Positions 3,190-4,262 of a stretch of DNA of 19,594 nucleotides are shown here, piece by piece. The position numbers and the translations under genes were made by a program. The number at the start of each line of letters is the position of its first letter. The stretch's first letter is position 1. Source of the stretch: a virus. The notes beneath the pieces are model-generated. The model ran no database searches. It saw only the letters and a list, made by a program, of their open reading frames with translations, and was not told the DNA's origin. Location: UHGV virus genome UHGV-0143126; one strand, given 5' to 3'.

Positions 3190-4017
3190 TTATTTAACCT
3201 GGATAAATGGTGTATTGGCACCGCTGGTCATGTATTGCGGCAGCGTGCCGTTCCATTTATTGATGGCTTCCAGCTCCATAACACCGGGGTTCTGACGCAG
3301 AGCTTCACCGCGTAAACGAATAGCATCGGCTTCAGCCTGGGCTTTTGTGCGAATCGCATCAGCCTGTCCGGCAGCTTCCGCGCGCAACATGTTGGCTTCC
3401 GCTTCGCGCTGTTTTACTTCCTGCTCGCGTTGCAGAGTTTTCTGGTTCGCCGTGACTTTGGCATTAATGCTGTCGATAACAGTAGGCGGGTACTCCGGCT
3501 TACCCACATATGAGAGGCTTATTACCTGAATACCGATGGGCGTCATTTCTTCCTGAATGTCTTTAAGAGCTGCATCCAGCAGCTCAGACTTGCCGCCGTC
3601 GATAAATTTGTCGGTGGTCATTTTGCTGGCCAGTCGGTTGAGTGCGTCGGCTATCTTCTGGCGCAGGTCGGTGTCGGTAATGTCGTCCACGCCTTTGCGG
3701 TAGGTCTGAAAGACTGTGGTAACTTTGGATGGATCAACCTTGTAGGCTACTCCGATGTGGTAACCAATGGTTGTTCCATCGCTCATCTGGAAACTGAATG
3801 GATCATCGTAGGTCTTCATCTGCTTAAAGGTCGGGAAGATATAAACTTCAGTGTTCCAGCCTGTCCAGTAGCGACCAACACCGACCACTTCACCGACGCC
3901 TTTGTCGTCGCCAAGTTTGTTGACTTTGATGCCCACATTACCAGGCTCAACACGATCACAACCGACAAGGCCAATGGCAGGCAGAACAATGGCTAAAGAA
4001 AAAATAATTTTTTTCAT
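3190..4017 (-). CDS. SPFH/band-7 (prohibitin/HflK/C-like) lipoprotein, 275 aa, predicted inner-membrane anchored
   Basis: Signal peptide MKKIIFSLAIVLPAIGLVGC with lipobox and Asp at +2 (CDR, inner-membrane retention signal); SPFH-like core; Ala/Glu/Gln/Arg-rich coiled-coil tail (QREQEVKQREAEANMLRAEAAGQADAIRTKAQAEADAIRLRGEALRQ); AGGA RBS. Confidence 0.7.
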   Translation of the reverse strand: MKKIIFSLAIVLPAIGLVGCDRVEPGNVGIKVNKLGDDKGVGEVVGVGRYWTGWNTEVYIFPTFKQMKTYDDPFSFQMSDGTTIGYHIGVAYKVDPSKVTTVFQTYRKGVDDITDTDLRQKIADALNRLASKMTTDKFIDGGKSELLDAALKDIQEEMTPIGIQVISLSYVGKPEYPPTVIDSINAKVTANQKTLQREQEVKQREAEANMLRAEAAGQADAIRTKAQAEADAIRLRGEALRQNPGVMELEAINKWNGTLPQYMTSGANTPFIQVK

Positions 4018-4202
4018 CTTTTATCCTTAGTGAAAGAAAGCCCCTTATAAATGGTATAAATACATGGCGGGGTTAGAAACGTCAGTGCAAAGCCAGAAAT
4101 CACCGCTACCGTATCCTTCATTGATATCAGAAACGGGACGAGCAATCCGTAAATACATGCGATAATTGCCAGTGATATAACTATTCTGAAATAAATGTTC
4201 AT
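4014..4202 (-). CDS. Small membrane protein, 62 aa, two predicted TM helices; translationally coupled to the SPFH gene
   Basis: Perfect AGGAGG RBS 3-4 nt before ATG; hydrophobic segments; its stop overlaps the SPFH start (ATGA). Confidence 0.6.
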   Translation of the reverse strand: MNIYFRIVISLAIIACIYGLLVPFLISMKDTVAVISGFALTFLTPPCIYTIYKGLSFTKDKR

Positions 4203-4262
4203 GGTCCTCCTGCTGTATTCAGCTTGCCTTATTTAATTGCGTCATGGTTAATTTCGTTTACG

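Follow-up and report, generated by a model that had tools for sequence, protein, structure and literature searches.

The gene pair described here lies in the virus genome UHGV-0143126, of which a stretch of 19,594 nucleotides (hereafter the window) was analysed. The window corresponds to the left arm of a lambdoid prophage of the phiP27-like type in Escherichia coli. It shares 99.4% identity with strain AST217, whose prophage is integrated beside mlrA, and positions 3100-4300 match ATCC 43886 and 14 others among the genomes listed at 100% identity. Homologous DNA occurs in 571 of the 5426 complete E. coli genomes, at 424 chromosomal and 241 plasmid places. The first gene of the pair encodes a 62-amino-acid protein with two transmembrane (TM) segments, and the second encodes a 275-amino-acid lipoprotein with an SPFH (Band_7) domain. 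Both open reading frames (ORFs) are co-oriented and were read directly from the window; their features are collected in Table 1. Both genes carry RefSeq annotation in the E. coli genomes that are identical across the pair region. The stop codon of the small ORF shares letters with the start codon of the SPFH gene, which bears out the translational coupling proposed in the initial annotation of this DNA. The AGGAGG ribosome-binding site claimed there for the small gene is also present, but its spacer to the ATG is 3 nt long, shorter than the usual optimum.

Table 1. Features of the gene pair and of the candidate promoter of its operon, in window coordinates
Feature	Positions	Strand	Basis
Shine-Dalgarno AGGAGG of the small ORF, ACC spacer, ATG at 4202	4206..4211	-	sequence
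Two-TM hairpin gene, 62 amino acids, PHROG 1130, without Pfam/NCBIfam family	4014..4202	-	ORF, profiles, dN/dS
Second Shine-Dalgarno-like element, AAGGA, inside the 3'-terminal part of the small ORF, 6-nt spacer to the SPFH ATG	4024..4028	-	sequence
ATGA start/stop overlap, predicted translational coupling	4014..4017	-	sequence; -4/-8 nt overlap in most homologous loci
SPFH/Band-7 lipoprotein gene, 275 amino acids, PHROG 200	3190..4017	-	ORF, profiles, model
Signal peptide codons 1-19, lipobox LVGC (Cys20) and Asp21 at +2	3955..4017	-	sequence
Band_7/SPFH domain, residues 22-208	3394..3954	-	Pfam; AlphaFold2 model; Foldseek
Single long helix, residues 178-242, putative coiled-coil wall segment	3292..3486	-	AlphaFold2 model; alignment
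C-terminal motif K254-W-N-G-x-L-P260	3238..3258	-	alignment; monomer model confidence low there
Promoter-like TTGACA-17-TAATAT, candidate leftward early promoter for the operon of the pair	6708..6736	-	consensus scan; function inferred

The gene-pair observation is confirmed, and its features go well past chance because of the Pfam score, the PHROG matches and the purifying selection on the small ORF. The large protein scores 109.3 bits with Pfam Band_7 (PF01145), whose gathering cut-off is 23.6 (E=2.9e-31), and the SPFH core that had been proposed is thereby verified. PHROG 200, labelled 'lipoprotein', matches residues 1-274 with E=9e-115. The N-terminus reads MKKIIFSLAIVLPAIGLVGC followed by DR; it holds the lipobox L-V-G-C20 with Asp at +2, as described earlier, and the SPFH domain starts 2 residues past Cys20. 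From the Sec/lipoprotein signal and Asp+2, this domain is predicted to be periplasmic and at the inner membrane. The anchor varies within the family. The majority of homologues carry a lipobox whose +2 residue is D, E, G, Y or S; several are anchored by an uncleaved N-terminal TM helix and retain the hairpin gene. In phage records, homologues are labelled 'SPFH domain-containing protein', 'lipoprotein', 'prohibitin family protein' and, wrongly, 'serine protease'.

An AlphaFold2 monomer model of the large protein, built on a 26-sequence alignment, reached a predicted local distance difference test score (pLDDT) of 78.7. In the model, residues 20-94 are beta-rich, residues 96-161 form helices and residues 163-175 a strand, and the Ala/Glu/Gln/Arg coiled-coil tail of the initial annotation appears as one long helix; the C-terminus has low confidence. 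A Foldseek search against the PDB returned solely cage-forming SPFH subunits, aligned over nearly the full length (~260-300 columns) with a probability of 1.0. These were HflC (E=5e-14), prohibitin (PHB), erlin1/2, HflK, stomatin, flotillin and QmcA. With a profile from eight diverse homologues, the closest solved sequences were HflC (1.4e-8), HflK (2.5e-8), QmcA (7e-6) and PHB2 (7e-5). The C-terminal motif has the general form K-W-x-G-x-L-P, in which K, W, G and P are invariant among eight homologues that are 34-52% identical to the first aligned sequence. The length of the long helix differs between homologues by multiples of 11 residues. The indels, of 11 or 22 residues, fall in columns ~230-262 of alignment A2 (window residues ~205-240), which suggests a hendecad periodicity and cages of unequal height.

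HflK and HflC (PDB 7vhp/7vhq/7wi3/9cz2) are the nearest solved relatives both by profile (E ~1e-8) and by fold. They have the SPFH1-SPFH2-long-helix architecture in common with the window protein, as well as the orientation predicted for it, periplasmic and at the inner membrane. With the lipoprotein signal and Asp+2, the HflK/C-like topology suggested at the outset stands as a prediction. The differences are large. The two proteins are 16-18% identical to the window protein, which scored 23.6 bits against a cut-off of 159.4 and 26.2 bits against one of 134.4 with the NCBIfam equivalogs TIGR01933 and TIGR01932. HflK and HflC form a heterodimer pair with N-terminal TM helices, whereas the window holds a single SPFH gene with a lipid anchor, paired with a hairpin of the 60-amino-acid class and not linked to hfq-hflX. 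An HflK/HflC orthologue was rejected on the failed cut-offs, the single gene and the lipid anchor. The SPFH4 'p-prohibitins' (Hinderhofer et al. 2009, PMC2636767) and mitochondrial PHB1/2 resemble the window protein in their size of ~270-290 amino acids, in a C-terminal helix followed by a conserved motif and in their predicted extracytoplasmic orientation, and PHB complexes are among the top fold matches.

The small protein has hydrophobic segments at residues ~5-26 and ~31-50 and a basic C-terminal tail. It is matched by PHROG 1130, 'membrane protein' (E=3.6e-23, residues 1-61), and is under purifying selection, the ratio of nonsynonymous to synonymous substitution rates (dN/dS) being 0.05-0.20 against 42 distinct alleles from related loci. 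Its conserved turn reads V-P23-F-L-I-S-M-K-D-T. The family signature is ...(L/V)-P-x-(L/M)-(I/V)-S-x-x-(D/S)-(S/T)...G......P, and one Pro is invariant in 22 of 22 aligned sequences. The protein is predicted to be an N-in/C-in hairpin, and because of the positive-inside rule the conserved stretch is placed in the periplasm as a short turn. No Pfam or NCBIfam model was found for the window protein and 21 homologues; Pfam at E<=1 gave scattered chance matches. The Pfam search of these 22 hairpins gave no match to exclusion families such as T4 Imm, and no profile-profile comparison was made. All database copies of the hairpin are listed as 'hypothetical protein' without a domain. A single-sequence search of 1.84 billion representatives yielded 30 hairpin clusters, all of 36-91 amino acids.

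Circularity was checked with a hidden Markov model (HMM) built from nine enterobacterial-phage hairpins alone, with reversed-sequence decoys and Z=1000. The model finds the partners in P88 and a P1 variant with E ~1e-14, those in Dyella, Leptospira and Dependentiae with E of 1e-8 to 1e-10, and those in Saprospirales, Flavobacterium and BcepF1 with E ~1e-4, against E>=7 for the reversed decoys. Judged from these comparisons, the hairpin is a real gene and belongs to a real, conserved, unnamed family. It diverges faster than the SPFH gene, as seen in P88/P1-type phages: the P88 SPFH protein is 93% identical to that of the window, yet the P88 hairpin is unalignable to the window hairpin by BLASTP. 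Similarity to P88 and the P1 variant at the DNA level is limited to window positions ~3223-3969, the part encoding the mature SPFH protein, which points to a recombination junction in the signal-peptide region at the 5' end of the SPFH gene. The locus is a mosaic in which the signal peptide and the hairpin gene of the window are a different, strongly diverged allele relative to the P88/P1 type.

Linkage of the two genes was surveyed in 212 loci from viral contigs, whose SPFH proteins form 27 clusters at 85% identity. The diverse loci came from an alignment-based scan; single-protein scans gave near-identical loci only. An HMM-detectable hairpin lies directly upstream in 16 of the 27 clusters. 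The remainder comprise the phiE125 group with its annotated gp44, which the survey script did not pick up owing to a start-site miscall, two clusters with weaker-scoring two-TM ORFs, three cut at contig ends and about five without a hairpin. In species-representative genomes, the hairpin is directly upstream in 57 of 79 SPFH loci. Across homologous loci, the hairpin gene usually overlaps the SPFH gene by 4 or 8 nt. The arrangement is found in the P2-like phage P88 (hairpin annotated 'membrane protein'), a P1 variant (an unannotated ORF of 78 amino acids), the N4-like Klebsiella phage KpCHEMY26 (annotated '2 TMDs N in C in'), the rV5-like phage Seu621 and the Burkholderia phages phiE125 (gp44) and BcepF1. 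In rV5-like phages (Seu621 locus L086, 1832-1996; locus L179), a soluble ORF of 54 amino acids, labelled 'putative transcriptional regulator', stands between hairpin and SPFH gene; it abolishes the usual overlap and leaves a gap of ~156 nt. The hairpin ORF is unannotated in phiP27 (L002, 3307-3492), Stx2_112808 (L293, ~3476-3661) and the P1 variant (L004, 4275-4511), and in several of these records the label 'serine protease' on the SPFH gene is a legacy mis-annotation.

The SPFH protein was detected by tblastn in at least 784 phage records, which include the strictly virulent Schitoviridae, Vequintavirinae, Ounavirinae, Herelleviridae, crAss-like phages and haloarchaeal viruses. The hairpin-SPFH pair itself is present in virulent Schitoviridae, Vequintavirinae and further virulent groups, and in lambdoid, P2-like and P1-like phages it is part of early operons of the lytic cycle. 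The family is also frequent in the prophages of pathogenic E. coli, Stx phages included. Many chromosomal loci are not prophage. Around the pair in Dyella lie genes for a BlaI-family repressor, hemerythrins and the ribonucleotide reductase beta subunit, and around that in Leptospira, Saprospirales and Flavobacterium lie those for ArsR, HMG-CoA reductase and NAD synthase. The flanking genes vary from locus to locus, and therefore only the pair is conserved. Given these neighbourhoods, the pair is an autonomous two-gene module common to cells and phages. A BlaI/Penicillinase_R-family repressor is divergently adjacent to the pair in 25 Rhodanobacteraceae species-representative loci (L225-L286; for example L240, 1494-1886, minus strand), an adjacency that may represent an envelope-stress regulatory link.

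This distribution bears on the proposal of the initial annotation that the SPFH protein substitutes for cIII and tunes the choice between lysis and lysogeny. According to that explanation, the phage cage would enclose FtsH or compete for it, shift the turnover of an FtsH-sensitive phage regulator and bias the decision. It is in keeping with HflC and HflK being the nearest solved relatives and with the same predicted periplasmic orientation. A 'CII-like regulator' by PHROG label (6106-6684) is encoded in the same leftward operon, and the reported lack of a recognisable cIII holds for the whole window, where tblastn with a lambda CIII query gave chance-level matches only, the best of them (E=0.18) lying on the wrong strand in an unrelated place. 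However, the module is found in strictly virulent phages (N4-like, rV5-like and others), in P2- and P1-type phages without a CII/CIII circuit and, outside prophages, in the chromosomes of Dyella, Leptospira and Bacteroidota, and so the lysis-lysogeny reading is unsupported as a general explanation. The HflK/HflC equivalog cut-offs are missed by a wide margin, and there is no K/C pair. The phiP27-like group, moreover, is without the lambda-type N, cIII, kil, gam and bet region and has no lambda-type cII-cIII arrangement. A role as FtsH modulator in place of cIII is thus considered quite unlikely, and the pair is most likely a general membrane module, as its distribution suggests, and not a dedicated lysis-lysogeny device.

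FtsH stays a reasonable candidate client of the module, by analogy, because its nearest relatives are HflK and HflC, and because HflK/C and prohibitin, both extracytoplasmic SPFH relatives, work with FtsH-type proteases (PMC2636767). The idea linking HflKC to lysogeny is already in print, as speculation, for other phage or satellite SPFH genes (PMC4936722, PMC10269572). Elsewhere, the role of phage SPFH proteins is called unclear (PMC13239085), or help in secretion is suggested (PMC7150955).

The initial annotation had also heard an echo of NfeD-SPFH operons (QmcA-YbbJ, PDB 8z5g; PH1510/PH1511; FloA-NfeD). The analogy holds for the plan of the operon, in which a small membrane partner is co-transcribed with an adjacent SPFH gene and the logic is the same across phyla, but not for the partner. 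The partner of the window has no NfeD/OB-fold and essentially no soluble part, and the SPFH protein is cytoplasmic in the NfeD systems, whereas here it is predicted to be periplasmic, with the partner gene upstream and overlapping by 4 nt. NfeD as the identity of the partner was rejected, given the lack of any Pfam/NCBIfam match among 22 family members and a length of 62 amino acids without a soluble domain. In the survey of SPFH subfamilies (PMC2636767), SPFH1, SPFH2 and SPFH5 are the only ones reported with a conserved operon partner, NfeD each time, whereas SPFH4 and the small subfamilies 6-12 are reported to have none. NfeD is again the one partner mentioned in a study of SPFH proteins from Pseudomonas that appeared in 2026 (PMC13086221). 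Both window proteins are direct members of PHROG 200 and PHROG 1130, for which PHROGs gives no function and no link between the two families. No description of the hairpin partner was found in the literature. Phage SPFH lipoproteins are already widely annotated; the hairpin partner is the new part, the surveys naming only NfeD.

Among phages, the closest parallels are MbpV/MbpS of Kayvirus and the SPFH locus of Kuttervirus, in which a small membrane-protein gene overlaps or abuts a gene for an extracytoplasmic SPFH protein in virulent phages (PMC7150955). A small membrane ORF abutting the SPFH gene therefore recurs in these loci, but the partners are unrelated to the P-x-L-I-S hairpin and the SPFH proteins are ~26% identical or less. 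In the Salmonella phage PhiSH19 (L291), an unannotated two-TM ORF of 72 amino acids with a strongly basic connecting loop (1932-2150, minus strand) shares 4 nt with the beginning of the Kuttervirus SPFH lipoprotein gene and is its real neighbour; this ORF too is unrelated to the P-x-L-I-S hairpin. A Kuttervirus 'superinfection exclusion protein' was considered as a lead and dropped. It is a soluble, acidic protein of 106 amino acids encoded upstream, ~200 bp from the SPFH gene, and it is therefore uninformative for the pair.

The expression of the pair can be judged from its place in the prophage. The genes are arranged as int, xis, DUF4222, DUF5406, SPFH and hairpin, followed by four or five small ORFs, of which one is ParE-like, a helix-turn-helix (HTH) 'CII-like' regulator and a cI-type repressor, past which Cro, Rha and the replication genes are divergently transcribed. 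Downstream of the repressor gene stand a terminator-like hairpin (6789-6773) and, after it, the promoter-like element of Table 1. A consensus scan found no promoter- or terminator-like sites flanking the pair, and the stem-loop at 3163-3181 past the SPFH stop lacks a U-tract and, with z=-1.45, falls short of significance. Because no such site flanks the pair, we infer that it belongs to the leftward early operon and is not an independently expressed moron. The lack of its own promoter and terminator argues against an exclusion moron expressed from the prophage. Superinfection exclusion or membrane-targeted abortive infection had been suggested in the initial annotation.

Exclusion during lytic growth is a separate matter. 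Here, the cage or a hairpin organised by it would block the DNA of a secondary phage at the inner membrane, with expression in the lytic cycle or from a leaky lysogen. An extracytoplasmic inner-membrane pair in early regions resembles T4 imm/sp, which act early in lytic infection. The PHROG category of the hairpin is 'moron, auxiliary metabolic gene and host takeover', and the module is widespread and mobile, with a hairpin that diverges faster than the SPFH gene. Against this, neither protein matched any PADLOC-DB 2.0 family at E<=0.1, the hairpins match no exclusion family in Pfam, the consensus scan gave the pair no promoter of its own in the window prophage, and Dyella keeps the pair at a stable chromosomal locus with conserved synteny; the Kuttervirus exclusion protein does not help either way. 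Superinfection exclusion or membrane defence is therefore rather unlikely, and membership of a known defence system was rejected, there being no PADLOC model for the pair. The same database had no match for four of five neighbours, and the fifth, ORF 5057-5416, gave a marginal match to a type II restriction enzyme (E=0.0076, 14 bits).

The module might instead stabilise the envelope and secure the timing of lysis, with a cage that guards the inner membrane against premature holin triggering, lysis from without or membrane-depolarising responses of the host and so secures burst size. The SPFH family is present across the lytic phages of diderms and, in TM-anchored form, of Gram-positives. In Kayvirus, mbpS comes after a gene for a holin-like protein with one TM segment, next to the endolysin gene, with a sigma-70-type promoter (PMC7150955). 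Cellular homologues suggest a house-keeping membrane role, the Dyella pair is syntenic with a BlaI-family repressor, and SPFH proteins have been tied to membrane stress tolerance (PMC10434171). The pair of the window, however, is in the early-left operon, far from the lysis cassette (16904-18050), and the argument proceeds mostly by elimination. This explanation is judged unlikely, but slightly less so than exclusion.

A lysogenic-conversion lipoprotein at the surface or in outer-membrane vesicles (OMVs), which would alter the host-pathogen interaction and have no role in the phage cycle, is very unlikely. Its model is PM0222, accession OAZ06802.1, of Pasteurella multocida, an HflK/C-like protein of a lambda-like prophage that was found in the lysogen and in OMVs, activates host TLR1/2 and attenuates virulence when deleted; it has been described as an OMV-associated virulence factor (PMC9872710). 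The literature gave no experimental function for a phage SPFH protein besides this study. The frequency of the family in pathogenic E. coli prophages, Stx phages among them, would fit such a role. However, Asp+2 predicts inner-membrane retention in E. coli, the module occurs in virulent phages and environmental bacteria as well, and PM0222 is a putative member of the subfamily, for which a hairpin partner would also have to be assumed. Activation of TLR2 is, in addition, generic to triacylated lipoproteins.

The explanation favoured here is a hairpin-SPFH module that forms a cage, to which a probability of roughly 0.55 is given. Phages would have taken a self-contained SPFH membrane-microdomain module from bacteria, or would exchange it with them. 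The 62-amino-acid protein is predicted to insert in the inner membrane as an N-in/C-in hairpin, exposing to the periplasm only the short turn P-x-L-I-S-x-x-D/S-T. The 275-amino-acid protein would be exported, lipidated at Cys20 and kept by Asp+2 at the inner membrane, where its SPFH domain would lie flat against the periplasmic leaflet. By homology to the solved assemblies of HflK/C, prohibitin, erlin, stomatin and QmcA, a ring or cage may form around a patch of the inner membrane, its assembly driven by the long helix together with the KW-G-LP motif at the C-terminus. The hairpin would be an obligate membrane-embedded co-subunit, a nucleator or organiser whose turn docks under the SPFH base. 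More speculatively, the module may be made in lytic development and not specifically in the lysogen, and the cage may corral or shield an inner-membrane client or stabilise the membrane of the infected cell.

Several points weigh against this explanation. In P88/P1-type phages the SPFH protein is 93% identical to that of the window but its hairpin is beyond alignment by BLASTP, and any contact between hairpin and SPFH protein must therefore depend on a few conserved turn residues. TM-anchored SPFH variants keep the hairpin, which indicates that it is not simply a replacement for a TM helix; the idea of the hairpin as a stand-in for a missing helix was weakened for this reason. Some distant phage SPFH genes, those of FelixO1-like phages, Arefeen1, Kayvirus and Kuttervirus, come with an unrelated small partner or with no partner at all. 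At +2 the family has Glu, Gly, Tyr and Ser besides Asp, and Arg at +3 may weaken Lol avoidance and hence inner-membrane retention under the +2/+3 rule. The timing of expression is suggested by the consensus scan, and localisation, oligomerisation and the hairpin-SPFH contact are predictions. The HflK/C-like protein of the Pasteurella prophage, a putative member of the family, was reported in OMVs (PMC9872710).

Other genes of the window deserve mention. In the leftward operon, ORFs 5612-5977 and 6106-6684 (both minus strand) match PHROG 4587, 5451 and 4836, and the latter adds an XRE-type HTH and bears the PHROG label 'CII-like regulator'. The shared module may represent a partial duplication, and the window is ~360 bp shorter than AST217 here. 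An ORF of 72 amino acids (4652-4870, minus strand), described as 'ParE family toxin-like protein' (PHROG 1525, unknown function), overlaps both neighbours, and no obvious antitoxin is annotated for it. Further right, an ORF of 380 amino acids (15249-16391, minus strand) is 'porin OmpC' in the AST217 annotation and sits between a Q-type antiterminator (~14677-15060) and the lysis cassette. This prophage-borne porin is likely a lysogenic-conversion gene, comparable to nmpC/lc.

SPFH proteins are known to form membrane cages, and few bacterial subfamilies have a described partner or client. The present subfamily almost always travels with a tiny, often unannotated hairpin, and the two proteins offer a concrete two-component system to reconstitute. 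For genome annotation, the small ORF should be called and the 'serine protease' label dropped from the SPFH gene. The working hypothesis shifts from lambda-style control of lysogeny to a general inner-membrane function in infected cells. A wider proposal, still tentative and less probable than the cage picture itself, is that the hairpin and the periplasm-facing SPFH protein constitute a class of two-component cage that spans phyla and has so far gone unrecognised, and that would add a third operon type to HflK/C and NfeD-SPFH. Many phage lineages would deploy it early in infection to corral a particular inner-membrane machine, the fast-diverging hairpin setting client specificity and the conserved SPFH shell being generic. 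If this is true, FtsH or a component of DNA entry or secretion would be candidate clients, and the module may give phages control of membrane proteostasis or superinfection.

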